Positions 137 to 30,821 of a stretch of 37,624 nt of DNA are shown in pieces. A program made the position numbers and the translations under genes. The DNA lies in assembly GCA_037384885.1 (NCBI GenBank), contig JARRNO010000066.1, positions 1 through 37,624 on the forward strand, in the 5' to 3' direction. The DNA is from Acidobacteriota bacterium (GTDB lineage: Bacteria; Acidobacteriota; UBA4820; DSQY01). The notes beneath the pieces were generated by a model. It was not told the origin of the DNA and ran no database searches. It saw nothing but the letters and a program-made list of their open reading frames with translations. Positions within the stretch are counted from its first letter, which is position 1; the number at the start of each line of letters is the position of its first letter.

Positions 137-478
137 TCAGACGCCGCCCCGGTGCATCATGCCCTGCATGACTCCCGTGCCGCCGAGGAAAAAGAACCAA
201 AGCGTGAACAGGCAGCCCCACAAGATGGCGATGATGCCAAGGACGATTCCGGCCAAAGAAAACCCCTTGCCCTTTTCAGAAGCCTGGCCGCGCTTGATTT
301 TGTTGAATTCCATGATTCCGATAATGAGTGCGGGGATGCCGGCAAGCCAGCCGCAGCAGAAAATGCCGACAATGCCCAGCACCAGAGCCGTGATGGCCAT
401 GCCGCTGGCTTTGTCCTGCACGCCCGGCGCGGACGGGGGCGGAGTTGCTGTCGTGGTAGGGGGAGGTACATCGCTCAT
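137..478 (-). CDS. small DUF4190-like integral membrane protein (113 aa)
   Basis: ORF 137..691 trimmed to the ATG at 476-478, which is preceded by AAGGAGG (rc of 485-491). The product starts MSDVPPPTTTATPPP, followed by two long hydrophobic helices (ITALVLGIVGIFCCGWLAGIPALIIGI and GFSLAGIVLGIIAILWGCLFTLWFFF). Confidence 0.55.
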   Translation of the reverse strand: MSDVPPPTTTATPPPSAPGVQDKASGMAITALVLGIVGIFCCGWLAGIPALIIGIMEFNKIKRGQASEKGKGFSLAGIVLGIIAILWGCLFTLWFFFLGGTGVMQGMMHRGGV

Positions 479-715
479 TCCATTCCTCCTTTTAAGGTTT
501 CCGTGCTTTCGGTGCTCTTCCTGGAAATTTACACCCTGCCGCCGGAAGGGGGCGCCCACAAGCTCCGGCAGGCGTCCCGTGTCCCCGTATCCCCCTCCCA
601 GAGACCTATCGGATGAAACACATGAAATATATACCACGAGGAGAGCGGGAAAGCCAGCCCGAACCCGGCCGGAAACACGCGAAGGGAACACTCGGCCTCC
701 CGCCTTTTGCGGCGG

Positions 716-7991: not shown

Positions 7992-9302
7992 TCAGCTCCC
8001 GAGACTGTCGAGCGCTTCCTCCAGGTCGGCCATGATGTCGTCCGGTGCCTCGAGCCCCACGCTGATGCGGATGCCGCCTGGATCGATCCCGGCCTGAAGC
8101 TGGTCTTCGATGGGGATGGGGGCGTGGGTCATGGAGGAAGGATGCTCCACCAGGGTCCTCACCTGCCCCAGCGAGACGGCCAGCGTGGCGCACAGTGCGT
8201 GCTGGGCGAGGTGGTCCATCATGCGCGCGCCGGCGGCGCGTGCTTCTTCAGGATCCCCTTTCAGGACGAAATAGATCATGAACCCCGGGGCAAAGTTGCC
8301 TTCCACGTCTACCATCTGCCTCTGTGCCAGAACGTGCTGGGGATGGCTGGGCAAGCCGGGGAACCGGACCTTGGCGACGGCGGGGTGCCCTTCGAGAAAC
8401 CGGGCGACCTTGAAGGCCGTCTCAATCTGCCGGCGCGACCGGAGCGAAAGTGTGGGAAGGCCGTAAACGAGAGGCGGCCAGGCGGATTTTGGGCTCAGCG
8501 GAGCACCGAAATCCTTCCTGAAGAGAAGCACATCGGGTTCCAGCAGCGAGGGCCCGGCCCAGACGCCGCCCATGTCCGTGCCGAAGCCTCCGATGTTCTT
8601 GGTCAGCGAATGGCAGACCGCGTCCGCGCCCAGGGTGAGAGGCCGTTGGGAAAAAGGGGTGGCGAACGTGTTGTCCACCACGATGTAGATTTTGCGCCGG
8701 GCGCCCCGCTTTTCGTTGACGCGGTCGACAACGGCCCGGACGGCGGCAATATCTACCAATTCAAGGGTGGGGTTGGTGGGCGTCTCGAAGTAAACAGCCA
8801 TGACCTCGGGTGTCAGCAGTTCCTCCAGGGCGTCGGTGTCTTTGAGATCGGCCAGCTTGACGTTGATGCCGAGGCGAGGGTACCAGTTCTTGAACAGCGA
8901 AAAGGTGCAGCCGTAAAGGGTCTGGTGCGATACCACAGAATCGCCCGCTTTGAGCAGCACGCCCAGGCTGGCGCTGATGGCGGCCATGCCCGTTGCGAAA
9001 CACACGGCGCACTCGCCTTCCTCCGCTGCTGCGATGTTGTCTTCCAACATGGAGCGCGACGGTTCGTCCAGGCGGTCGTAAATGTAAATGGGGGGCTGAA
9101 CGTGCCGGTTGAATTCGGGATTGGCGAACTCCGTGAAGCCTTTGGCGCCCCGGGCGACGCTTTCGAGGCGGTAGGCCGCCGAGGCGGAGATCGGCGGGAC
9201 GATGTGGTCGGAGTAATTCCAGTGAGGAGAATGGAAGTCGCCGTGAATGAGGCGTGTTTCCATCTGGTAGCGTCGTTTTTTCTTGTCTTTGTCCTTGTCC
9301 AT
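7992..9302 (-). CDS. Cys/Met-metabolism PLP-dependent enzyme (methionine gamma-lyase / O-acyl-homoserine sulfhydrylase family)
   Basis: TRLIHG N-terminus, YDRLDEPS, YFETPTNPTLELVDI, the PLP-lysine context HSLTKNIGG, and C-terminal IRISVGLE. Start set to the ATG at 9300-9302 (MDKDKDKKK...). The track start at 9317 is a GTG inside the GGAGGG ribosome-binding site. Confidence 0.85.
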   Translation of the reverse strand: MDKDKDKKKRRYQMETRLIHGDFHSPHWNYSDHIVPPISASAAYRLESVARGAKGFTEFANPEFNRHVQPPIYIYDRLDEPSRSMLEDNIAAAEEGECAVCFATGMAAISASLGVLLKAGDSVVSHQTLYGCTFSLFKNWYPRLGINVKLADLKDTDALEELLTPEVMAVYFETPTNPTLELVDIAAVRAVVDRVNEKRGARRKIYIVVDNTFATPFSQRPLTLGADAVCHSLTKNIGGFGTDMGGVWAGPSLLEPDVLLFRKDFGAPLSPKSAWPPLVYGLPTLSLRSRRQIETAFKVARFLEGHPAVAKVRFPGLPSHPQHVLAQRQMVDVEGNFAPGFMIYFVLKGDPEEARAAGARMMDHLAQHALCATLAVSLGQVRTLVEHPSSMTHAPIPIEDQLQAGIDPGGIRISVGLEAPDDIMADLEEALDSLGS

Positions 9303-9456
9303 CTCAGATCCCTCCACTACTCTATTTTATACCGAATCACGCCGGTGTCAGGGAAAATCGGCGCCGCCGGAGGAGCGCGGCGAATTGCCCCGCCGCCCGG
9401 TGTGGGGGATAATTCCCGCCCTCTTGTGATATCTTAACATCCCGGAGGTTTTACAG

Positions 9457-10493
9457 ATGTTGACAGCCGTCAAAGGCACTCAGGACTTGTATTTTCCAGA
9501 CATCAGACGGTGGCAGCGTCTCGAACGGGCCGCAAGAGCGGTCTTCGAGCGCTACGGCTTTGCGGAAATCCGCACGCCGGTTCTAGAGCACACGGAGCTT
9601 TTCGTGCGCGGAATCGGGGATGAAACGGACATCGTGTCGAAGGAAATGTATACCTTCAACGACAAAAAGGGGCGCAGCCTGACACTGCGTCCCGAGAACA
9701 CGGCCGGCGTGGTGAGGGCGATCGTCGAGCACCGCCTTTTTGAATCGCCCACGCACGCGCGGCTTTATTACATCGGGCCCCAGTTCCGGTACGAGCGCCC
9801 GCAGAAAGGCCGCCACCGGCAGTTCCACCAGATCGGAATGGAGGTGATCGGAGAAGAGGCGCCCGGCTGTGATGCGGAAGGGATCACCCTCGCCGCGGAC
9901 CTGCTGCGGGACGTGGGGATCGACCGGGTGCTCGTGGGACTGAATTCGGTGGGGTGTCCCAATTGCCGGCCCGGATACGTGGCGCGTTTGAAGGAAGCGC
10001 TGGCCGGGGAAAGCGGCGCACTTTGTTCGGACTGCCGGAGGCGGCTTGAGACCAATCCGCTCCGCGTACTGGACTGCAAAGTCCCTTCGTGCCAGCCCAT
10101 TCTCGACAAGGCTCCCCGTTTTCCCGATCACCTTTGTGATGAATGCGCCGGGCACTTCGCCGGGCTGAAATCCGCCCTTCACACCTTGGGCGTTCCCTTC
10201 GAGGAGAAGCACCGGATGGTGAGAGGGCTCGATTACTACACGCGGACGGTCTTTGAAATCACGAGCGGATCGCTCGGCGCGAGGCAGACCTTCCGGTGGT
10301 GCTGGAACACTCCGAGCGTTCTTTCAAATCTTCCTTCAAACGGGCCGACAGGATCGGAACCCGATGGACGCTCGTGCTGGGGGAAAACGAAGTGGCCGAG
10401 GGCCGGTATGCGTTGAAAGACATGGAATCGGGGCGGCAGGAATCGTTCCCGCTGCCCGAGCTTATCCGCCGCTTGAAGGAGGCCGGGGCATGA
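9457..10493 (+). pseudogene. hisS: histidyl-tRNA synthetase with an internal deletion plus frameshift
   Basis: Frame 1 gives a normal HisRS N-terminus and motifs 1 and 2 (SLTLRPENTAG, FRYERPQKGRHRQFHQ) through GLDYYTRTVFEITSGSLGA at about 10281, then becomes nonsense. The conserved C-terminal end (ERSFKSSFKRADRIGTRWTLVLGENEVAEGRYALKDMESG) resumes in another frame from about 10296. That frame ends in an ATGA overlap with aspS. Motif 3 (GGGRYD...GFA.G.ER) and most of the anticodon-binding domain are absent. Confidence 0.8.
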
Positions 10494-12328
10494 CGCTCGG
10501 AGATCGCACCCATTACTGCGGCGACGTAACGGCGGAGCTTGTCGGCTCGGAAGTGCTGCTCAAGGGATGGGTCCGCCGGCGGCGCGACCTCGGCAGTCTC
10601 GTGTTTGTGGACTTGAGAGACCGCGAGGGTATTGTCCAGCTCACCTTTTCCCAGGATTCCAGGCCCGATCTCTTCGCCCTGGCGAAGACATTGAGGCCCG
10701 AATTTGTCATCGAGGCGGCGGGAAAGGTCAGACGCCGGAGCGACCGCGACGTCAACCCGCAGATGAAGACGGGGGAGGTGGAGGTGGACGCGGAGAGGCT
10801 TGAAATCCTTTCCGAGTCCGAAACGCCGCCATTCGCGGTCGAAGACGCGGTGGCTGTGAGCGAGGAGCTGCGCCTTCAGTACCGCTATCTTGATCTCCGG
10901 CGCCCCGTCCAAAATTCCCGCATCATCGCCCGCCACAAGCTGGCCATGAGAGCCCGGCGGTGCCTGTCGGAAAAAGGCTTCGTCGAAATCGAAACGCCGT
11001 TCCTGACGCGGTCCACGCCGGAAGGCGCCCGGGATTTTCTCGTGCCCAGCCGGATGCGGCCGGGCGATTTCTACGCGCTGCCGCAGTCCCCGCAGCTTTT
11101 CAAACAGCTCTCCATGGTGGCGGGGTTCGACAAATACTTTCAGGTGGCGAGGTGCTTCCGCGACGAGGACCTCCGGGCCGACCGCCAGCCGGAATTTACG
11201 CAGATCGACGTGGAAATGAGCTTTCCCACCGAAGACGGCGTGATGCGCCTGGCGGAAGACCTGGTGGACGATCTGTTCGAGGAGGCGGGGCGTCAGCGCC
11301 ACGGAGAGGTCCCCCGGCTGACCTACGACCAGGCCATGGAGCGTTACGGCACCGACAAGCCGGACACCCGTTTCGGTCTCGAACTGAAGACCGTGTCGGA
11401 CATCGCTTCGAAAACATCTTTTCGCGTGTTTCGATCGGTTTTGGAATCGGGCGGTTCAGTGCGAGGCCTGTGCGTTCCCGGTAAGGCGGGCCTGTCTCGA
11501 AAAGACCTGGATGCATTGAACGACGTTGTGAAGCCCTTCGGTGGAAAAGGCGTGGTGAGCCTGTCGCGCCGGGACGGAACCGCAGCGGGTGCCGTAGTGA
11601 AGCACCTGGGCGAATCGTACGCCGCGGCTTTGCTCGACGCCGTCGGGGCCGGAGAGGGCGACCTGGGCCTCTTCGTAGCGGCGTCCTACGAGACCGCGTG
11701 CGCGTGCCTGTCGGCTCTCCGGCTCCACTTTGCGCGGCAGCTCGAACTGACGGGCCAGAAGCGCCTGGATCTGGTGTGGGTCAACCGGTTTCCCGCCTTC
11801 GAATGGGACGAGGATGACAACCGGTGGGTGGCGCGGCACCATCCCTTCACCATGCCGCGGCCCGAGCAATGGGGCTGGCTTGAAAGCGATCCGGGCAAGG
11901 TCGAAGCAATGGCCTACGACCTGGTCCTGAACGGGAATGAAATCGCCGGCGGGTCCATCCGCATCCACCGGCGTGATGTCCAGGAAAGGGTGTTCGCCGC
12001 TCTCGGGTTTACCCGTGAGGCGGCCCGGGAGAAATTCGGATTTCTCCTCGATGCGTTCCGTTACGGGACACCTCCGCACGGAGGGATCGCCTTCGGCTTC
12101 GACCGGCTGGTCATGCTTCTGCTGGGCTGCGAATCCATCCGCGATGTCATCCCCTTTCCCAAGACGACGTCGGGACTTTGCTTGATGACCGGTTCGCCCG
12201 CTCAGGTGGATAGAAAACAGTTGGAAGACCTTCACCTCCGTGTGGAACCCAGGAAAAGGGAAGCGGCGGAAGGTGCTTCCTCCGTTTCCGGGGAGGTCGA
12301 AAATGATAAAGGGGACACCGGCCGGTAA
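10490..12328 (+). CDS. aspS: aspartyl-tRNA synthetase (bacterial type)
   Basis: 612 aa starting MTLGDRTHYCGDV. Contains LLKGWVRRRRDLGSLVFVDLRDREGIVQ (OB fold), FRDEDLRADRQPEFTQID (motif 2), and GGIAFGFDRLVMLL (motif 3). ATG at 10490 follows GAAGGAGG. Confidence 0.93.
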   Translation: MTLGDRTHYCGDVTAELVGSEVLLKGWVRRRRDLGSLVFVDLRDREGIVQLTFSQDSRPDLFALAKTLRPEFVIEAAGKVRRRSDRDVNPQMKTGEVEVDAERLEILSESETPPFAVEDAVAVSEELRLQYRYLDLRRPVQNSRIIARHKLAMRARRCLSEKGFVEIETPFLTRSTPEGARDFLVPSRMRPGDFYALPQSPQLFKQLSMVAGFDKYFQVARCFRDEDLRADRQPEFTQIDVEMSFPTEDGVMRLAEDLVDDLFEEAGRQRHGEVPRLTYDQAMERYGTDKPDTRFGLELKTVSDIASKTSFRVFRSVLESGGSVRGLCVPGKAGLSRKDLDALNDVVKPFGGKGVVSLSRRDGTAAGAVVKHLGESYAAALLDAVGAGEGDLGLFVAASYETACACLSALRLHFARQLELTGQKRLDLVWVNRFPAFEWDEDDNRWVARHHPFTMPRPEQWGWLESDPGKVEAMAYDLVLNGNEIAGGSIRIHRRDVQERVFAALGFTREAAREKFGFLLDAFRYGTPPHGGIAFGFDRLVMLLLGCESIRDVIPFPKTTSGLCLMTGSPAQVDRKQLEDLHLRVEPRKREAAEGASSVSGEVENDKGDTGR

Positions 12329-16980: not shown

Positions 16981-18990
16981 TCACTGTTCGATCTGGAACT
17001 CGACAGGGTACGTCAGCTGCGTTTTAACAGGGACGCCGTCCTTTATGGCGGGAGAGTATCGAGTCTTCATGGCGGCTTCAATGCAGGCCTCGTCCAGCCC
17101 GTAATCGGGCTGGGGCCCGCGGATGACTTTGGCGTCTGTCACCCGGCCCTGTTCGTCGATGTCCACGGTAACGTAGACCGTTCCCTCCACTCGGTGCTGG
17201 CGGGCAAGGGACGTATAGCGAACGGAAACGCGCTTGATGACTTTGGGCTTGATGTCCACCTCCCAGATGTGGACGAAAGCTCCGGCTTTCACCTTGGGTT
17301 TCGGCACAGGAGCCTTCATGACAAGCTCGTTGTCGGCGGGAGGCTGCTGGAGGGCAGGACCCGGGGCGGCTGTTTCGTTGGCGGACGCGGAAGGAAGAGC
17401 ATTGGCCCGAGGCGGCTCGGAGGGGGTCCCGGAATCGCCAGCCCCCTTGCCGGCAGCGGCTTCATTGGGCTTCGGCGAAGGAGACGCGGCGGCGTTGCCA
17501 TCCGCCGGTTTCGGCGCGGCGTCTTCTTCTGCGTTCTTTTCTTTCGGAGCGCTCTCTTGCTGCGAACTGAGCTTGGCCAGAAGGGCCTGCTGCTGCCGGC
17601 GCTGATCAGCGATGGTTTGTCTGGCCTTGGCGAGAGCGTCCAGCATCTGCTGCCTCTCCTCTGTCGTTTTGGCATTCGGGAGAGAACCCTCTAGGCGTGT
17701 TTTCTGCTTTTCCGCGGCCGAAAGCTGCTTGGCGAGTTGCTGCTGCTTCTTCTGGAAGTTCTCTCTTTCTTTCGCCATCTGTGCTTCATACTGGGCGCGA
17801 AGCCGGGCCTCCTGAGCCCTCCTGGGCGCGATGACCAAAAACCATACGCCGGCAGCCGCGACAGCGATCACGGCAGCGGCGGCGCCTCCGATCTTCAGCC
17901 ACTTCCCAGCGCTTCCTCCTTCCGAGCCGGCTGCTCCATAGGAGGAGAAGAGCGAGCTCCCGCTTTCCGGGAACTCTCCCGAACGCTGCTTTTCGCCTCC
18001 CCCGGAGGGCGCGGCCTTGGCTGGGGCCTTAAACGGCGGAGCCTTGAGAAAAGGCGTCCGGTTCAGACTCAGGTGCCCGCGGTTTGTCTCGGCCTCCTGC
18101 TCATCCTGGCCCCGGAAAAGGGTATGCATCAGGAAGGCGATATTAAAAGTTGTGGGGCTGTATTCACCGGAGGCAATCAACGCGTCCAGATCGCTTTTCA
18201 TGGCCTGGAGATCGGTGTATGCCCCGGAGTGGTCCGGGTCAAGCCCCTTCCGGACGATCTCCATGATATCCGCCGGGGGCGGCTCCGCCAGTCCCAGACC
18301 CTTCGCGCCCTGCTCGAGGCGGGTCTGGAGATTGATCTGCTCGGGACCTTCGGAGCAAAAGGGCTCATGGCAGATGAACTCAAAAAGCAGCAATGCAAGC
18401 GCCTTGGGGTCCTGCGATGGGCTCAGGGGCTGCCCCTTGGGAAGCGTGGGAGGCAGATAGGCCCGATGGTGCGCGAGGATCGGCGAGCCGGCCAGGGAGG
18501 TGGTGTGGAGGTTTCGTATGGCCGGCGGGAAGAGCCGGACCTCGCCTTCGAAAGTTATCAGCACCTGGTGCGGGGAAAGATGGCCGAGGAATTCTTCCTG
18601 GGTGCCCACGGACACAGCGGCGCCGGCAAGACGTTCCGCCAGGTAGACGGCCTGGTCGGGTGCGAGCGGCACCCCTTCTTCGCGGCAGCGGCCCAGCATC
18701 TGGCCGAGGGTCCGGCCGAGGCGGAACTCACACACGTAGTAAAGCCGGCCGCCCAGTTCGCCGAAGTCGAGAAGGTTCAGGGTGTGGATATCCCGGATTT
18801 CCTTCCAGTGCTGGCAACGTGTCTTAATAAGTGCCACTGCGGCGGCGTCTTCTGAAAGCTCTGGCGAAAACCGGACGAGGAATTTCAGCTCCGGCGGGCC
18901 TTCCAGGTTGACAGCCTTGTACACGATCCCCAGGTCGAAACGCGAGTGCTCTTCGACCAACAGGTATTCGCCCCAGCGTTCCGGCTTCAT
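16981..18990 (-). CDS. membrane-anchored pseudokinase with coiled coil, Pro/Ala-rich spacer and a TonB C-terminal domain
   Basis: The N-terminal roughly 270 aa has a Hanks-kinase-like fold, but the Gly loop, VAIK Lys, HRD Asp and DFG are all absent ([20 protein letters not shown]). One TM helix ([25 protein letters not shown]) is followed by a coiled coil ([28 protein letters not shown]). The C-terminal 85 aa match TonB_C ([27 protein letters not shown]...[11 protein letters not shown]). Confidence 0.8.
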
Positions 18991-19019
18991 TACAGGCCCT
19001 CTTCAAAAGACACGGCCAG

Positions 19020-19047
19020 TTTAAACAGACCCGGCCGGTCCTGTCAA
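19020..19047 (-). promoter_or_regulatory. candidate sigma70 promoter of the pseudokinase-glnA operon
   Basis: On the minus strand, TTGACA (19047-19042), a 16-nt spacer, then TTTAAA (19025-19020). This lies about 30 nt upstream of the ATG at 18990 and downstream of terminator B. Confidence 0.45.
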
Positions 19048-19136
19048 TCGGGCCTGGCCCCGGCGGGAAGGACGATTCGAGGAATACCATCGAACCCTTC
19101 GGCATGGTTTGCGCCGGACCCGCACGGGGGGCGGGG

Positions 19137-19202
19137 ACAAAAAAAGAGAACGGGAGCTGGGGAGCTCCCGTTCAATAAGGGATGGGAGGGGTGTTCTGCC
19201 GA
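19137..19202 (-). ncRNA. candidate sigma54-dependent small RNA B (about 65 nt)
   Basis: The predicted start is about 12 nt downstream of the -12 GC at 19214-19215. The G-poor 5' part is ..GAACACCCCUCCCAUCCCUUAUU. It ends in a perfect 11-bp hairpin GAACGGGAGCU-CCCC-AGCUCCCGUUC (19148-19173) followed by UCUUUUUUU. There is no start codon or ORF. Confidence 0.6.
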
Positions 19203-19213
19203 CTCTTACTAAA

Positions 19214-19228
19214 GCAACATGCGTGCCA
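19214..19228 (-). promoter_or_regulatory. sigma54 -24/-12 promoter B
   Basis: The minus strand reads TTGGCACGCATGTTGCTT. This matches the consensus YTGGCACG-N4-TTGCW with correct GG/GC spacing. Confidence 0.7.
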
Positions 19229-19270
19229 ATTATTACGTCCTTTAAATTCAGTGACTTAGCGCTTTTGGGG

Positions 19271-19318
19271 GGCATGCCGTTTTGGCGCACTACGTGCCAT
19301 TATGGCGCACATGGCGCC
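19271..19318. promoter_or_regulatory. tandem 20-bp imperfect dyads, candidate enhancer-binding-protein sites
   Basis: The plus strand reads ggcatgccgttttggcgcac / tacgtgccattatggcgcac (15 of 20 identical), plus a third partial atggcgcc. On the minus strand these read GTGCGCCA-WAA-YGGCAYG, resembling the NtrC-type TGCACCA-N3-TGGTGCA. They sit 45-90 bp upstream of promoter B, and an AT-rich tract (19229-19255) lies between. Confidence 0.45.
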
Positions 19319-19388
19319 GGGACGGCAGGTGTGTCGAAAAGGTCTCACTTGCCGCCGCTTGAAAATTTGCCTTGGACCCGTCCAGTTC

Positions 19389-19439
19389 AAAGAAAAAGCC
19401 CCTTTCGGGGCTATAAGGAGGAATGGAGGGGGTATGAGG
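19389..19439 (-). ncRNA. candidate sigma54-dependent small RNA A (about 50 nt)
   Basis: The predicted start is about 12 nt downstream of the -12 GC at 19451-19452. The sequence is GCCUCAUACCCCCUCCAUUCCUCCUUAUAG, then hairpin AGCCCC-GAAA-GGGGCU (19397-19412), then UUUUCUUU. There is no ORF. Confidence 0.6.
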
Positions 19440-19449
19440 CAATATATTA

Positions 19450-19465
19450 TGCAAGCCGTGTGCCA
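19450..19465 (-). promoter_or_regulatory. sigma54 -24/-12 promoter A
   Basis: The minus strand reads CTGGCACACGGCTTGCAT, a near-perfect TGGCAC-N5-TTGCA. Confidence 0.7.
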
Positions 19466-19509
19466 GAAACGTGATTCCTGCCCCTTCGCAAACGCCGCGA
19501 TTCGCCCTG

Positions 19510-19518
19510 TGGTATACT
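19510..19518 (+). promoter_or_regulatory. possible extended -10 element for pyrK
   Basis: TGgTATACT lies 16 nt upstream of the pyrK ATG. There is no convincing -35, and it would give a very short leader. Confidence 0.25.
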
Positions 19519-19533
19519 CCCAACGGAGGTTGC

Positions 19534-20310
19534 ATGGCCCTTAAGACATTTCAGGTGACGGAAAACCGCGTGCAAGGTTCCTACGCCGCCATTACGGCTG
19601 AAGGGCCCGTCAGTCCTGCACTTCCAGGCCAGTTCTACATGTTGAGAGGAGACTGGGGCGCCGATCCTCTCTTAAGCCGTCCTGTGTCTATTTTGGCGCA
19701 AGACGTGTCATCTCGACAGATTCGCTTCCTGATAAAGGTGTTCGGTGAGGGCTCGCGCCGGCTGGCGTCGCTGAAGCCCGGCGAGCTGCTCTACGGGACG
19801 GGACCCTTCGGGAATACGTTTCCAGTGGATTTTCTTTCGCCGGAAGATCGTGTCCTGCTGGTGGGCGGCGGGGTGGGCATGCCGCCCATCGTCTACTTGG
19901 CGGAATCCACGAAAGCGATGGGAGTATCCCCCGTCGTTCTTCAGGGGGGGCGCACTGAAAAGGATCTCGTCCTGCTGGAGGAGCTGGCCGGCCTGAAGAT
20001 CGATCCGGTCCTGGCCACCGAAGACGGCAGCCGTGGCCGTAAGGGCCGGGTGACCGTCCTCCTGGAAGAGGCTCTGAAAGATGCGCCACGTGTGGTCTAT
20101 GCCTGCGGTCCGGAAGGCATGTTGCAGGCCGTGGCGGACGTTTGCCGCGGCAGAGTGGCCTGCTACCTGAGCCTGGAAGCCTACATGGCTTGCGGCTATG
20201 GCGTCTGCCTCGGTTGCGTCGTGTCCGTGCGGCAGGAGGAGGGAGGCCGCTACCGCCGTGTATGCAAGGAAGGGCCCGTCTTTTCGGCGGAGGATCTGAC
20301 ATGGCGGTAG
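19534..20310 (+). CDS. pyrK: dihydroorotate dehydrogenase B electron-transfer subunit
   Basis: 258 aa from the ATG at 19534 (GGAGG upstream). FNR-like fold (PGQFYMLR, RPVSI, GPFGN, LVGGGVGMPP) and a C-terminal 2Fe-2S motif (CGYGVCLGCVV...CKEGPVF). Confidence 0.9.
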   Translation: MALKTFQVTENRVQGSYAAITAEGPVSPALPGQFYMLRGDWGADPLLSRPVSILAQDVSSRQIRFLIKVFGEGSRRLASLKPGELLYGTGPFGNTFPVDFLSPEDRVLLVGGGVGMPPIVYLAESTKAMGVSPVVLQGGRTEKDLVLLEELAGLKIDPVLATEDGSRGRKGRVTVLLEEALKDAPRVVYACGPEGMLQAVADVCRGRVACYLSLEAYMACGYGVCLGCVVSVRQEEGGRYRRVCKEGPVFSAEDLTWR

Positions 20311-24238: not shown

Positions 24239-24495
24239 CGGATGGCCATCATAGCATGCAAACCGTGGACGAATGCACTTCTCAGCAAGCCCGCAGCGTT
24301 GTCAGAAACGAGGAAGGAGGGAAGTGGAGAGGGCGCCGTTTGGGCGCCTGAAGCATCCTCCGCCCGTCAAAATGCGAAGTGCGCATCGGTGGGCATTTCA
24401 ACTCAGAATTGCCCGGCTCCGTTCTCTCCCGTTCTCTACGAAACTTAAACCGGGGCGTCCGGGATGAGGTGCAATGCGGCACAGGACGGAGGGCT

Positions 24496-26570: not shown

Positions 26571-28859
26571 ATGCATGAAGCAATTGACATAGAAAAGCTC
26601 GGCGGGGTCAAGGAGGGGGAACGTAAAAAACCCCGGTCCAAGGAAGCCCGCCACGAGATCGCCTGCCAACCCGCCGACGAACGGATTCACAACTACAACG
26701 AGGTGGCGCTGGGGTATAACCCGGAAATTGCGGTGTCCGAGGCAATGAGATGCCTGGAATGTCCCAAGCCGCGCTGTGTGGTTGCATGCCCGGTCCACAT
26801 CGATATTCCCTCGTTCATCGGAAAGGTCTCCCGGGGGAAATTCGAAGAGGCGGCCGAGGACATCAGGCAGTACAATAATCTGCCGGCCATTTGCGGCCGG
26901 GTCTGCCCCCAGGAAAACCTCTGCGAGGCGGCATGCATCATCAACGACACCAATGAGGGCAACCCGATCGCCATCGGCCGCTTGGAAAGATTCTCCGCGG
27001 ACTGGCAGCTTCTCCACGGGAACCACAGCGGCAGCGAGGTCCACAAACGTCCCGCGACCGGGTGCAAAGTGGCCGTCATCGGCACGGGGCCCTCGGGCCT
27101 CTCATGTGCTGCGGACCTTGCAAAGATGGGACACTCGGTGGACATGTACGAGGCCCTGCACAAGCCGGGCGGCGTGCTGATGTACGGCATTCCCGAATTC
27201 CGGCTTCCCAAGGAGATCGTGCAAAAGGAAATCAGTTTCGTGAAGTCGCTCGGCGTGAATATCGAGCTGAACTGCGTGGTGGGGCGGACCATCCCGGTGG
27301 AAGAGATCATGGAGACCTACGACGCGGTCTACGTGGCCACCGGCGCCGGCTTTCCCAACATGATGAAAATCCCCGGGGAGAACCTCAACGGAATCTATTC
27401 CGCCAACGAGTTCCTGACCCGGGTGAATCTCATGCGGGCCTGGCAGCATCCAGCGGCGGGCACGCCCGTCCGCAAGCCCAAGAAGGCCGTTGTCGTCGGC
27501 GCAGGGTTTACCGCCTTCGACGTGGTGCGCATCGCGCTCCGGCTTGGCGCAGAAGAGGCGCAGATCGTCTACCGGCGGTCCCGTGAGGAAATGCCGGGCC
27601 GCGGCGAAGAGATCGAGCATGCCGAAGAAGAGGGCGCCAAACTGACGCTTCTAACCAACCCCGTGCAGTACATCGGGGATGAAAGGGGCTTTGTCAAGGC
27701 CGTGGAAGTTCAGAAGATGGAGTTGGGAGAGCCCGACTCCTCAGGACGGAGGCGCCCGGTTCCCATCGAGGGGAGCAATTACATCATCGATGCCGACCTG
27801 GTGGTCGTGGCCATCGGCCAGACGCCCAACGTGCTCATCCCTTCGAACCTTCCCGGGCTCGAAACGCGCTGGGGTTCCATCATCAAGGTAAACCGGGAGA
27901 CCTATATGACCTCGGTTCCCAAAGTCTTCGCCGGAGGGGACGCCATCACGGGGGCCGCCACCGTTATTCTCGCCACCCGGGCCGGGCGCGAAGCGGCGCG
28001 CTCCATCGACGCCTACGTGCGCATCCCAACCGAAGCTGGGCCGAACCCAACTGATCCGGCAGATAGGGGATTTCTCATGGAAGTAGTGGAACGATTCAAA
28101 GCATACCTGGAAGAACCCTTCGCCGAGTCTCTCATGAAGGATTTCGAATCCGCGCTCAAACATCTCGAGGAGGTGGATGCCTCGCCGTCCATGCAGGACC
28201 TCGTTACAGACATGGCCGGATTGCGGGAAAATCCCTCATTCCCGAGGAAGGCGGGGCTTTTCCTGTCTGCGTACCTGAAAATAGCGGCCCGTCCAGAGTC
28301 TATCGACCTGGAATCTTTCGAAGACACGCGCCTGGAAGGTCTCGGCGCTTGCATGGACAAAGCCGATCTCACCGTCAAGGGTGATGCGGGCAACTATACG
28401 GGCGCCTTCATGCTGTCCGGAACCCTCACCGTTGAAGGGGACGTGGGGGACTACACCGGATTTTCCATGGAAGGCGGCACGCTGCACGTCAAGGGCCTCT
28501 CGGAAAGCCACACCGGCCACTCCATGTCCGGCGGGCGCATCGTGGTGGACCGCAATGCGCACGATTTTACCGGCAACCGCATGACGGGCGGCTACATCCG
28601 CATCCGGGCGAACGCCGGCTATTCGACCGGCTACCGCATGGTCGGCGGGTTTATCGAGGTCCGGGACTTGGCATGGGACCTGGCCGGCGAAGAAATGATC
28701 GGAGGCCGCATCCAAATCGGCGGCCACGTGGGACACGACCTTGGTTATTCCATGGTCGGCGGCGAACTCGCCGTCAACGAGAAGAACAGCGAAACGCCTC
28801 GTGTCAGAGCAAAGGGGGGACAGCTCACTGTGGTAGCGCGCGGAAAAAAGCGACGCTGA
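26571..28859 (+). CDS. NfnB / GltD-like NAD(P)H flavin oxidoreductase fused to a C-terminal GXGXG beta-helix domain
   Basis: Residues 1 to about 470 have Fe-S Cys motifs (CLECPKPRCVVACP, CGRVCPQENLCEAAC), an FAD site (VAVIGTGPSGLSCA), a second Rossmann fold (VVVGAGFTAFD) and AGGDA. Residues 600 to 745 (nt 28368 onward) are repeated G-x-x-G-x-x-M-x-GG-x-I/L turns (GDAGNYTGAFMLSGTLTVEG, GDYTGFSMEGGTLHVKG, HTGHSMSGGRIVV, FTGNRMTGGYIRI...). These resemble the C-terminal domain of glutamate synthase large subunit and FwdC. Confidence 0.8.
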   Translation: MHEAIDIEKLGGVKEGERKKPRSKEARHEIACQPADERIHNYNEVALGYNPEIAVSEAMRCLECPKPRCVVACPVHIDIPSFIGKVSRGKFEEAAEDIRQYNNLPAICGRVCPQENLCEAACIINDTNEGNPIAIGRLERFSADWQLLHGNHSGSEVHKRPATGCKVAVIGTGPSGLSCAADLAKMGHSVDMYEALHKPGGVLMYGIPEFRLPKEIVQKEISFVKSLGVNIELNCVVGRTIPVEEIMETYDAVYVATGAGFPNMMKIPGENLNGIYSANEFLTRVNLMRAWQHPAAGTPVRKPKKAVVVGAGFTAFDVVRIALRLGAEEAQIVYRRSREEMPGRGEEIEHAEEEGAKLTLLTNPVQYIGDERGFVKAVEVQKMELGEPDSSGRRRPVPIEGSNYIIDADLVVVAIGQTPNVLIPSNLPGLETRWGSIIKVNRETYMTSVPKVFAGGDAITGAATVILATRAGREAARSIDAYVRIPTEAGPNPTDPADRGFLMEVVERFKAYLEEPFAESLMKDFESALKHLEEVDASPSMQDLVTDMAGLRENPSFPRKAGLFLSAYLKIAARPESIDLESFEDTRLEGLGACMDKADLTVKGDAGNYTGAFMLSGTLTVEGDVGDYTGFSMEGGTLHVKGLSESHTGHSMSGGRIVVDRNAHDFTGNRMTGGYIRIRANAGYSTGYRMVGGFIEVRDLAWDLAGEEMIGGRIQIGGHVGHDLGYSMVGGELAVNEKNSETPRVRAKGGQLTVVARGKKRR

Positions 28860-28908: not shown

Positions 28909-28983
28909 TCGGAAAACAGGCCGGCCGGATGGGGAACAATTGGCGTCTCCTGCTGTTAGTGAAATTAAGCAGGGAGGGGTGGC

Positions 28984-29610
28984 ATGCGGTCTCTTATTTT
29001 CCTGGCGCTGGCCGTCCTGGCGGCGGCCTCGCCGGTTTTTGGGAAGGAGCCCCCAATCGTGGACGCCTTAAACCGGGATGAAGTGATAACTTTGGGCGGG
29101 GGATGTTTCTGGTGCCTCGAAGCGGTTTTCGAAGAGGTCAAGGGCGTGCGGCGGGCGGTTTCGGGCTATTCCGGCGGCACCGTGGCGGATCCCAGCTACC
29201 AGGATGTCTGCAGTGGTGAAACGGGCCACGCCGAAGTGGTCCAGGTGACCTTCGATCCCAGCGTTATCAGTCTGAAAGAACTCCTGTCCGTCTTCTTTAC
29301 CATTCACGATCCCACAACCCTCAACCGGCAGGGCGCCGACCGGGGAACCCAGTACCGCTCGATCGTGCTTTACAGGAACGAGGCGCAGAAGGCCGCGGCG
29401 GAAGCGGTGATCCGCGAAATCGAAGCGGCGAAGATCTATGGATCGCCCATCGTGACCCAACTTGTTCCCTTCAAAGCCTTTTACGAGGCCGAGAGCTACC
29501 ACCAGGACTATTACCGGACCCACCCCTCCCAGGCCTACTGCCGTATCGTCATCTCGCCGAAGGTGGCGAAGTTCCGCGAAAAATTCAGAAGGCTGATGAA
29601 AAGCCCCTGA
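28984..29610 (+). CDS. msrA: peptide-methionine (S)-S-oxide reductase with a signal peptide
   Basis: 208 aa. N-terminus [20 protein letters not shown], active site [24 protein letters not shown], and [26 protein letters not shown] lies before the ATG. Confidence 0.92.
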
Positions 29611-29716
29611 TTCCCTTTGCCGCTCCCTTCCCGAGCGGCCTGTTCACGTCAACTCAAACGCTATAAGTTTTGAAAGAGATACCTTCCCGTACTGCGAAAC
29701 GGGATGGGAGGGAACG

Positions 29717-30821
29717 ATGACGGCGAAGGTGGATCTTTCCGCCGAAACCAAGTACGGTCTCCTGCTCGAAATCGAACACAAAGTGAGGGGGACGCTCGAT
29801 CTGGACTCCATCATGAACCACCTCCTGGATACCATCGGGTCGGTCATGGATTATGACGCCGCCGGGATCTTCATCCTCAACCGGGGAGCGGTCCTCCCCC
29901 ATCGCGGGCCGCCGGGCAATGTCATCGCCGGGATCGCCTTGAGGGGTTTCGACCTGGGGCCGCCCGAGGCCGATCCCATGCTGTCCGAAGGGAAGGGCGT
30001 CATCGGCCGGGTCATCCGCACCGGGGAGACAGTCCTGATCTCCGATGTGGCGAAGGATCCGGACTATATTGCCGGCAGGAAGAGAACCCGTTCCGAGGTG
30101 GCGGTGCCCATTTGCCATCAGGACCGCGTGATCGGCGCCCTCAACGTGGAGAGCGACCGTCCCGGCGCATTCAGCGAGAGGGACCTCGGCATCCTGAACT
30201 TCTTTGCAGACGCCACCGGAATCTCTATCGAAAGGGCCGTCCTTCACCGGCAGATTCTGGAGAAGAAGTGCATGGAGGAGCAGCTCCGCCTCGCCCGCGA
30301 CGTGCAGGCGCGCCTGCTTCCGGCCGCCCCGCCGGGAATTGCGGGATACGACATCGACGGATTATGCATTCCCGCTTACGAAATCGGCGGAGACAGCACA
30401 TGGCCGGCCGGCTCAACAAATTTCTCCTGGACGACTCCAATACGGCCACTTTCGTGACCGCCGTCTACGGAACTCTTGATCCTCCGAGCGGAGAGTTCCG
30501 CTATTCGGTGCTCGGCCATAATCCGCCCCTTCTTCTCCGCGCCGACGGCAGGTGCGAAGAGCTTCGAGCGGGCGGGCTGCCTCTGGGGATTCGTCCGCGG
30601 GTGTCGCCCCTGATGGGAGAGGCCCGCCTGCGGCGGGGAGACGTGCTCGTCCTCTATACGGATGGAGTGGTGGAAAGCGGTGGACCGGAAGGGCCCGATT
30701 TCGGACTGGAGCGGCTGGTCGATGTTCTCAGGCATTCACTGCAGCAAAACGCCATGGGCATGATCAAAAATGTGGTCCAGGCCACGACTTTACGCTTGTC
30801 GTGGTCAAGCGTACCCCCTGA
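29717..30821 (+). pseudogene. GAF-domain PP2C (SpoIIE-type) phosphatase, disrupted and spread over three frames
   Basis: Frame 1 carries the GAF domain (GVIGRVIRTGETVLISDV, EVAVPICHQDRVIGALNVES) and the PP2C start (ARDVQARLLP...AYEIGGD) to about 30394, then nonsense. Frame 2 from about 30400 carries the middle of PP2C (RLNKFLLDDSNTATFVTAVYG, LGHNPPLLL, VLYTDGVVE). Frame 3 from about 30780 carries the end (HDFTLVVVKRTP, stop at 30819-30821). The GGD(Y)YD...DVSGKG...AAL segment is missing. Confidence 0.7.

Follow-up and report, generated by a model that had tools for sequence, protein, structure and literature searches.

A candidate pair of sigma-54-dependent small RNAs in Acidobacteriota, with an anti-Shine-Dalgarno match to a DUF4190 gene

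The stretch of DNA analysed here, which we call the window, is a contig of 37.6 kb and 62% GC from a metagenome-assembled genome of an Acidobacteriota bacterium. Near one of its ends, the ribosome-binding site (RBS) of a gene of the DUF4190 family is matched over 13 nucleotides (nt), without a single mismatch, by the exposed segment of a putative small RNA (sRNA), sRNA-A, which would be made from a distant intergenic region together with a sibling, sRNA-B. The match is probably a conserved translational switch, because relatives of DUF4190 in other genomes keep a complementary motif. We thus favour, with some confidence though well short of certainty, a scheme in which a pair of sRNAs, induced through sigma-54 and directed against the Shine-Dalgarno (SD) sequence, would repress translation by occluding the RBS, DUF4190 being a conserved target and sRNA-A its partner here. 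The components of this scheme are not equally secure: that both RNAs are real sigma-54-dependent sRNAs we hold to be highly likely, and that DUF4190 is a genuine direct target seems to us somewhat more probable than the contrary. The interpretation that the original prediction drew from the letters of the DNA is, in silico, supported.

The part of the window shared with assembly GCA_037384925.1 and with two others is identical in them, and the nearest species representatives have a PyrK protein only 51-58% identical to the one encoded here. Related loci with which the window was compared are labelled by L-numbers (L001, L013, L084 and so on).

The match and the gene of sRNA-A

The 13-mer AAGGAGGAATGGA lies at 479-491 on the minus strand, where it abuts the start codon of the DUF4190 gene, and its exact complement is found on the minus strand at 19415-19427. 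Read along the minus strand, positions 491 to 479 give AAGGAGGAAUGGA, followed at once by the AUG (478 to 476). A single further copy of the 13-mer stands on the plus strand, at 19415-19427, and an RNA made there from the minus strand would therefore read UCCAUUCCUCCUU; this segment ends 2 nt 5' of an intrinsic terminator of the same strand (stem 19412 to 19397, then UUUUUCUUU). Both copies are thus present exactly as the original prediction had them. It had further placed the antisense segment in an unstructured region just 5' of the terminator, and the unpaired probability computed there is indeed about 1.0. Its division of the match into seven generic SD bases and six specific ones is fair, AAGGAGG occurring 13 times in the window, and the occlusion of SD and spacer that it proposed agrees with the predicted 13-bp pairing, which spans positions -13 to -1. 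The elements concerned are these:

479-491, minus strand: site in the DUF4190 mRNA to which sRNA-A is predicted to bind, AAGGAGGAAUGGA, comprising the SD and the whole spacer to position -1 (from duplex energy and the longest contiguous match)
137-478, minus strand: DUF4190 gene, 113 aa, a small protein of membrane type by its Pfam family (PF13828), with a conserved cysteine cluster
19415-19427, minus strand: 13-nt seed segment of the putative sRNA-A, UCCAUUCCUCCUU, exact complement of the DUF4190 RBS
19451-19465, minus strand: predicted sigma-54 (-24/-12) promoter of sRNA-A, TGGCACacggcTTGC, an exact TGGCAC-N5-TTGC
19388-19440, minus strand: putative sRNA-A, about 50 nt, GCCUCAUACCCCCUCCAUUCCUCCUUAUA with hairpin and U-tract (from its fold and from covariance model R1)
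19397-19412, minus strand: predicted hairpin of the intrinsic terminator of sRNA-A, AGCCCCGAAAGGGGCU, with its U-tract next to it at 19388-19396 (stem conserved and loop variable across the family)

The seed belongs to a gap of 543 bp (18991-19533) with two minus-strand terminators, flanked by pyrK (plus strand, from 19534) and by a gene for a 669-aa TonB_C protein (minus strand, 16981-18990). An exact sigma-54 promoter stands 40-55 nt upstream of each terminator, and these two are the only exact matches to TGGCAC-N5-TTGC in the window; when the promoter was sought as a regular expression over about 1.2 Mb of loci, seven matches were returned, four of them from these sRNAs. Judged by promoter geometry, transcription of sRNA-A would start at about 19439/19440, within about 2 nt, and the resulting RNA is predicted to consist of a 28-nt C/U-rich 5' tail (unpaired probability about 1.0 over nt 1-28) and a GC hairpin of 6 bp. 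No conserved sigma-70 -10 box is present at the sRNA promoters. The pyrK gene has its own conserved promoter (TATACT), which every relative has downstream of the element, and the hairpin therefore lies outside the pyrK leader; the kinase-like TonB_C gene likewise has its own promoter (TTGACA-N17/18-TA(C/A)ACT), downstream of the second terminator. Since both neighbours are provided with promoters of their own, we can understand the sRNAs as separate transcription units. A pyr leader on the plus strand, of the PyrR type or any other, was considered and rejected in view of the position of the pyrK promoter and of the lack of an Rfam match.

As a bare repeat the match is ordinary, for the window holds 65 inverted pairs of 13-mers where Markov-2 shuffles hold about 41. 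Once the 29-nt unpaired seed of sRNA-A is given as the partner, a 13-nt match anywhere in the window is met in 1.5% of shuffled windows. Seed A has its longest contiguous match in the window at the DUF4190 site; when 3,656 SD-bearing start-like sites from the window and from 44 related loci were compared, all the others stopped at 10 contiguous nt or fewer, and in 1.64 Mb of related loci the complement of the seed has no RBS match of 11 nt or more, the sRNA genes themselves excepted. The duplex of 13 bp was computed at -21.2 kcal/mol, against -12.2 kcal/mol for the 16S anti-SD on the same leader. In the mRNA the SD (GGAGG) is predicted to be paired with CCUCC in codons 5-7, and about +6.4 kcal/mol would therefore be needed to free the site; sRNA-A would need no opening energy, and the net interaction comes to about -14.8 kcal/mol. 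The DUF4190 mRNA is thus predicted to have an intrinsic hairpin which sequesters its SD within its own ORF (open reading frame; window 440-492, minus strand; GUACCUCCCCCUACC) and which takes about 5-6 kcal/mol to open.

Partners were ranked by contiguous pairing and within translation initiation regions (TIRs), in place of a duplexfold scan of the whole window. The latter was discarded as a target predictor: it is uninformative, being dominated by loopy G-rich duplexes, and leaves DUF4190 outside the top 25. Against the 31 TIRs of the window, seed A has DUF4190 as its first partner by contiguous pairing and as its second by duplex energy.

A tandem pair and its family

In the window sRNA-A is the first of a tandem pair. 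The second member, sRNA-B, follows 240 nt downstream, with a start placed near 19202 by promoter geometry, and the corresponding elements are as follows:

19214-19228, minus strand: predicted sigma-54 promoter of sRNA-B, TGGCACgcatgTTGC, an exact TGGCAC-N5-TTGC
19139-19202, minus strand: putative sRNA-B, about 64 nt, UCGGCAGAACACCCCUCCCAUCCCUUAUUGA with an 11-bp hairpin (19173 to 19148) and a U-tract (from its fold and terminator)
19284-19318, no strand assigned: probable enhancer (upstream activating sequence), GGCGCACtacGTGCCA with a second GGCGCACatgGCGCC repeat, a presumed activator site between the two sRNA genes

The enhancer is organized around a GGCAC-N3-GTGCC dyad, which stands 65-70 nt upstream of the TGGCAC of the sRNA-B promoter (about 90-95 nt from the start) in the window, L115, L128 and L107, and of which L013 and L014 have variants. 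It is a plausible binding site of a sigma-54 activator, possibly shared by the promoters of A and B; no comparable dyad is obvious upstream of the sRNA-A promoter. What had looked like a third sigma-54 promoter at about 19290-19306 (TGGCACGTAGTGCGCC) was reread as this dyad.

Two further genes of the window have an RBS that sRNA-B might recognize. Its best partners among the 31 TIRs are the gene of a GAF-PP2C protein (a SpoIIE-type phosphatase), the SD of which is covered by a perfect complement of 12 contiguous nt (GGGAUGGGAGGG; 29701-29712, plus strand; ATG at 29717), and msrA, with a complement of 10 nt at the RBS (GGGAGGGGUG; 28972-28981, plus strand; ATG at 28984). The phosphatase and MsrA are, as far as pairing tells, candidate targets of sRNA-B.

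The pair is not a peculiarity of this contig: it recurs beside TonB-family genes in at least eight lineages of Acidobacteriota. BLAST with the intergenic region found the element ahead of pyrK, in an unchanged position, in both L014 (85% over 54 nt) and L013, although the PyrK proteins of these loci are only 51-55% identical. A scan of metagenomes for promoter and seed yielded nine further clear members, and L145 and L146-149, which also have A and B in tandem, came to light through orthologs of the kinase-like TonB_C protein; homologues of sRNA-A are now found in L013, L014, L094, L099, L107, L115, L117, L120, L128, L133, L136, L145 and L146-149. A covariance model built from 12 copies, R1, scores family members at E values from 1e-11 to 1e-21 (85.9 bits, E=3.6e-19, for sRNA-A of the window), and in nearly every locus it finds a second, weaker copy, sRNA-B, 220-320 nt downstream on the same strand. 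Tandem B copies are present in the window and in L013, L014, L107, L115, L128, L133, L136, L145 and L146. That sRNA-A is a gene, as originally proposed, is made credible by its exact promoter, its unpaired seed, its terminator and the conservation of its family in distant Acidobacteriota.

It is worth considering what has been conserved. Throughout the alignment of A and B, TGGCA and TTGC are invariant, the N5 spacer and the stretch from -11 to -1 being free, and in a few copies outside the alignment the final C of TGGCAC is replaced by T or A. The 5' end of the RNA (CCUCAUACCCCCUCCAUUCCUC; CCUCAUACCCCCUCCAU(U/C)CCUC) is almost invariant across the family. The seed core CCCCCUCCAU(U/C)CCUC is kept in all 10-14 homologues, with varying flanks and loop; the 3-5 nt before the hairpin vary as well, the U-tract is kept, and the gaps of the alignment are not multiples of three. 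At one position of the sRNA-B terminator G-C and A-U replace each other as a compensatory pair, 4:4. Such a pattern is that of a promoter and an RNA, as alignments can tell, and not that of an ORF. Ten or 11 of the 13 bases that would pair with DUF4190 fall within the family seed core (CCCCCUCCAUUCCUC; UCCAU(U/C)CCUC(C)).

The genes around the pair may be described briefly. A TonB-family gene always adjoins it, the order in L146 being TonB_2, A, B and the kinase-like TonB_C gene, and the left neighbour in the window is pyrK, as a replacement. In L146 (region 8493-11887) a second, small gene, of the TonB_2 type, stands ahead of the pair. Many orthologs of the 669-aa TonB_C protein have an N-terminal protein-kinase domain (Pkinase + TonB_C), and this family of kinase-TonB fusions appears to be confined to Acidobacteriota.

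A cmscan of the whole window against Rfam 15 gave no match at gathering thresholds, and only noise (E<=10) in 18900-19650; the families tested included Qrr, GlmY/Z, RsaE, Acido-1 and Acido-Lenti-1, none of which reached its gathering score. The best sub-threshold match of sRNA-B was ar14 (RF02344), at 17.5 bits for a gathering score of 58.8, which does not amount to homology.

Two further observations belong with the family. Three low-GC (41-45%) metagenome contigs (L104 2542-2655, L110 3780-3893 and L111 88-201) have a different small unit with a sigma-54 promoter, in which GGCACCCUCCCAUCCCCUAUCC goes with a long hairpin and a U-tract. The seed of this unit is similar to that of sRNA-B, and the unit may be a remote offshoot of the family in a different lineage. 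In the window itself, the intergenic region that separates rsgA from a glycosyltransferase gene has, at 24300-24350 (minus strand), a hairpin (GGCGCCCAAACGGCGCC) and after it a C/U-rich tract, CUCUCCACUUCCCUCCUUCCUCGUUUCU. Of all duplex partners of seed A in the window, self-pairing excepted, the plus-strand complement of this tract ranks best, and the place showed no sigma-54 promoter.

DUF4190 leaders and competing explanations

The presumed target is the last gene of a block formed by a che operon, DUF2752 and DUF4190. Its ORF matches PF13828 with E=6.7e-15 and 55 bits (gathering cut-off 35), and its N-terminus, MSD..., is in line with those of the orthologs, which are found with the same synteny and 50-63% identity in L084-L091, L151, L153 and L154. 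The exact 13-mer is not conserved in these orthologs. The first four looked negative because they share only GGAGG with it, a verdict that was revised when the seed cores of both sRNAs were used as reference. An RBS motif complementary to the core of seed A or seed B, AUGG(G)AGG or GAGGAAUGG, is then found in seven of nine DUF4190 lineages. Counted as AUGG(G)AGG or GGAAUGG, it is present in 7/9 DUF4190 orthologs and in 3/156 neighbouring genes (Fisher p=7e-9). Scoring used the two consensus seed cores only, over the region from -30 to +3, and the lengths of match in the nine lineages were 10, 6, 6, 8, 8, 8, 9, 12 and 8 nt; only 2.6% of the 156 called neighbouring genes reach 8 nt (Mann-Whitney p=2.6e-6).

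The last three of these values come from a prediction fixed before the orthologs in question were fetched, namely that most would match over at least 8 nt, including the AU of the seed; the new orthologs, P0107, P0108 and P0105, scored 9, 12 and 8 nt. The motif takes several forms. In L153 the RBS is GAGGAAUGGAGG, a 12-nt complement of the A core CCUCCAUUCCUC, with GAGGAAUGGA common to L153 and the window; in L150-152 it is AUGGAGGGG (9 nt) and in L154 AAUGGGAGG (8-9 nt), and L087, L089 and L140 have (G)AUGGGAGG, the complement of the B core CCUCCCAU(C). Across the nine aligned leaders the SD, the start codon and one position of codon 2 are alone invariant. The original prediction had suggested asking whether relatives retain seed and target jointly, and the answer is favourable, with the proviso that the partners come from different contigs. 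No sRNA copies were found inside the DUF4190 loci.

Two observations on neighbouring genes may be added. In L150 (18-308), L151 (3168-3515) and L152 (1549-1839) a second, divergent DUF4190-like gene lies directly upstream of the ortholog, and its RBS is devoid of the motif. In L153 (8344-8376) the RBS of CheC has AAUGGAGG, 8 nt of the A core, and is one of the three background genes with the motif; this hints, from pairing potential, that other genes of the che block might be co-targeted.

A number of facts weigh against a specific role of the match. The final CUU of the seed segment, its last 3 nt, varies between lineages. The first test of enrichment was made post hoc, and gave p=0.0017 against 127 neighbouring genes. 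The orthologs of L084 and L086 have an SD without the motif, and the register of the match differs, the non-SD pairing (AAUGGA) lying 3' of the SD in the window and the AUGG 5' of it in most orthologs. Orthologous leaders are not fully independent samples. Outside the window, moreover, seeds and targets are found on different contigs and cannot be assigned to one genome: L140 and L145, for instance, must be from different organisms because their tetranucleotide similarity is 0.80-0.86, as against 0.98-0.99 within a genome. As to energies, the TIRs of AspS, MsrA and PyrD come within about 4 kcal/mol of DUF4190, and many G-rich sites of the window equal or beat it by raw duplex energy. Finally, neither rpoN, nor a sigma-54 activator, nor Hfq is encoded in the 37.6 kb of the window.

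The most serious competing explanation, which we regard as unlikely while giving it real weight, accepts the sRNAs and denies that DUF4190 is their specific target. The seeds would be generic anti-SD sequences, which dampen many strong G-rich SDs or titrate something, and the 13-nt match as well as the AUGG(G)AGG motif would have another cause, such as an extended or standby ribosome site in a well-translated small gene. The CCUCC motifs do make any strong SD a partner, seed A forms duplexes of -22 kcal/mol or stronger with six of the window's 31 TIRs, and many G-rich sites that are not RBSs outscore DUF4190 in duplexfold; the two orthologs devoid of the motif and the shift in register would also be accounted for. 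Against this, the enrichment rests on bases that do not belong to the SD (the AU of CCAU and AUGG), and these are what distinguishes seven of nine leaders from three of 156. The 3' end of 16S RNA cannot pair with AUGG, if we may judge by the usual bacterial tail ...CCUCCUUUCU and not by that of this organism, and no start-like site other than that of DUF4190 offers more than 10 nt.

A second explanation, very unlikely in our opinion, would see in the sigma-54 transcripts terminated leaders, that is, attenuators, of the downstream TonB-family gene, with C-rich tracts acting in cis. Both units do point at the kinase-like TonB_C gene in the window, L013, L014, L145 and L146, and a TonB-family gene is always next to the pair. 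This gene, however, has its own conserved promoter of the sigma-70 type past the second terminator, and in L107, L115, L128, L133 and L136 the right neighbour is a gene for a transporter of the major facilitator superfamily, the pair being unchanged. There are two complete promoter-terminator units in tandem, and no alternative anti-terminator fold is evident, the tail of A being predicted as fully unpaired. A last explanation, that there is no sRNA and that 19415-19427 is the plus-strand RBS of a small ORF or leader upstream of pyrK, which happens to resemble another RBS, has in its favour an SD-like 13-mer and an ATG at 19434 that opens an ORF of about 37 codons overlapping the start of pyrK, but it is scarcely credible and the ORF was rejected, as 12 nt separate the SD from the ATG, relatives do not keep the ORF, which frame-shifting indels break in the alignment, no plus-strand promoter was identified upstream whereas that of pyrK lies downstream, every homologue keeps the U-tract and the sigma-54 elements, which belong to the minus strand, and pyrK is not adjacent in most loci.

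Unrelated to these questions, the window differs by indels from near-identical assemblies: it is without 117 nt inside a glycosyltransferase gene (L001; site 23712/23713) and without 133 nt present in L002 (site 14932/14933), and a glutamate-synthase-like ORF (26571-28859) that forms one frame of 762 aa here is split into 494 and 260 aa in L001. The differences from L001 and L002 are assembly or strain indels.

Proposed mechanism, known systems and significance

We return to the scheme that we favour, RBS occlusion by a sigma-54-induced pair. The anatomy of the locus, the conservation of both partners and their complementarity are there to be read in the alignments; from them we infer transcription and its start site, the repressive outcome and the identity of the signal. 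The intergenic region 18991-19533 would encode two tandem, independently transcribed minus-strand sRNAs, each with an enhancer-dependent sigma-54 promoter, a long unpaired C/U-rich 5' seed containing anti-SD motifs, and an intrinsic terminator. A sigma-54 activator would turn on both promoters, whereupon UCCAUUCCUCCUU of sRNA-A would pair with AAGGAGGAAUGGA of the DUF4190 mRNA. The duplex would hide the SD together with all of the spacer as far as the AUG, outcompeting the 16S anti-SD (-21 versus -12 kcal/mol); binding of the 30S subunit would be blocked and synthesis of DUF4190 would fall, possibly with subsequent decay of the mRNA. Other mRNAs with G-rich extended SDs would probably be co-regulated.

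Several known systems have features of this kind. The Qrr1-5 RNAs of Vibrio are sibling sRNAs dependent on LuxO and sigma-54, with upstream activator sites and a conserved single-stranded seed that pairs with RBSs; they are about 100 nt long, with several stem-loops, they depend on Hfq, and their seeds are not anti-SD C-tracts. The likeness lies in sigma-54-driven siblings with a single-stranded seed, and the difference in that the siblings are here in tandem, 240 nt apart, with apparently one shared enhancer between them. The RsaE/RoxS RNAs of Bacillota target SD regions through unpaired C-rich or CCUU anti-SD stretches; in contrast to the present RNAs they have promoters of the sigma-A type, and their C-rich motifs are in loops.

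The trans-acting alpha-r14/NfeR1 RNAs carry an ultraconserved unpaired C-rich motif (CCUCCUCCC) which pairs with TIRs and blocks several RBSs, and NfeR1 is wired into the NtrBC/sigma-54 nitrogen circuit, its transcription being activated by LsrB and repressed by NtrC (PMC10746234). The blocking of an RBS by a C-rich anti-SD motif is the point of likeness, shared with AbcR and with CcsR of the 'cuckoo' type. The alpha-r14 motif is however displayed in three hairpin loops, whereas here it would belong to a linear 5' tail in an RNA of about 50-65 nt the only hairpin of which is the terminator; NfeR1, an alpha-proteobacterial RNA and hence from another phylum, is not driven by a sigma-54 promoter, unlike what is proposed for the RNAs here. 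GlmY and GlmZ of Enterobacteriaceae form a homologous pair with sigma-54 promoters, sites for the activator GlrR and a function in the cell envelope (PMC3045617). They differ by their length (about 150-200 nt), by the absence of an anti-SD seed and by their action, GlmZ activating its target and GlmY being a protein decoy, and they have no similarity in sequence or structure to sRNA-A and sRNA-B. CJnc230 of Campylobacter is of the anti-SD type and its expression depends on RpoN (PMC11187230); it differs in being processed from the flgE mRNA, and Rfam indicates no homology. By analogy, then, sRNA-A and sRNA-B resemble alpha-r14/NfeR1 and RsaE in their mechanism and Qrr and GlmY/Z in their wiring, and are members of none of these families.

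Acidobacteriota rank with the most abundant bacteria of soils and sediments, and to our knowledge almost no riboregulators have been described in them. A survey of 2022 counted four annotated sRNAs in this phylum and 345 in Proteobacteria (PMC9029176), and we found no paper on DUF4190 in connection with an sRNA, or on sigma-54 sRNAs in Acidobacteria. The two RNAs are a new family with a known type of mechanism, and because occlusion of the SD by a C-rich seed is well known, the value of the case lies in the family, the phylum and the target and not in a new principle. The family is sharply delimited: about 50 nt, a defined type of promoter, a seed and a conserved predicted target. We may tentatively go further, in a proposal to which we give slightly less than even credence, and picture a module of twin sRNAs that answers to sigma-54 with the help of an enhancer-binding activator, is physically linked to TonB-family genes, occurs widely in one large clade of Acidobacteriota or more, and has as its primary retained target DUF4190 at the tail of a chemotaxis operon. 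Were this true, no earlier sRNA regulon of the phylum would have had a defined conserved target; enhancer-dependent transcription would be linked to an envelope or chemosensory output through anti-SD pairing, and the seeds of A and B would swap places on the DUF4190 target between lineages. The family points to a new member of a sigma-54 regulon, the activator of which may be found via the conserved dyad, and it offers a way into the function of DUF4190 and DUF2752, widespread proteins to which none has been assigned.

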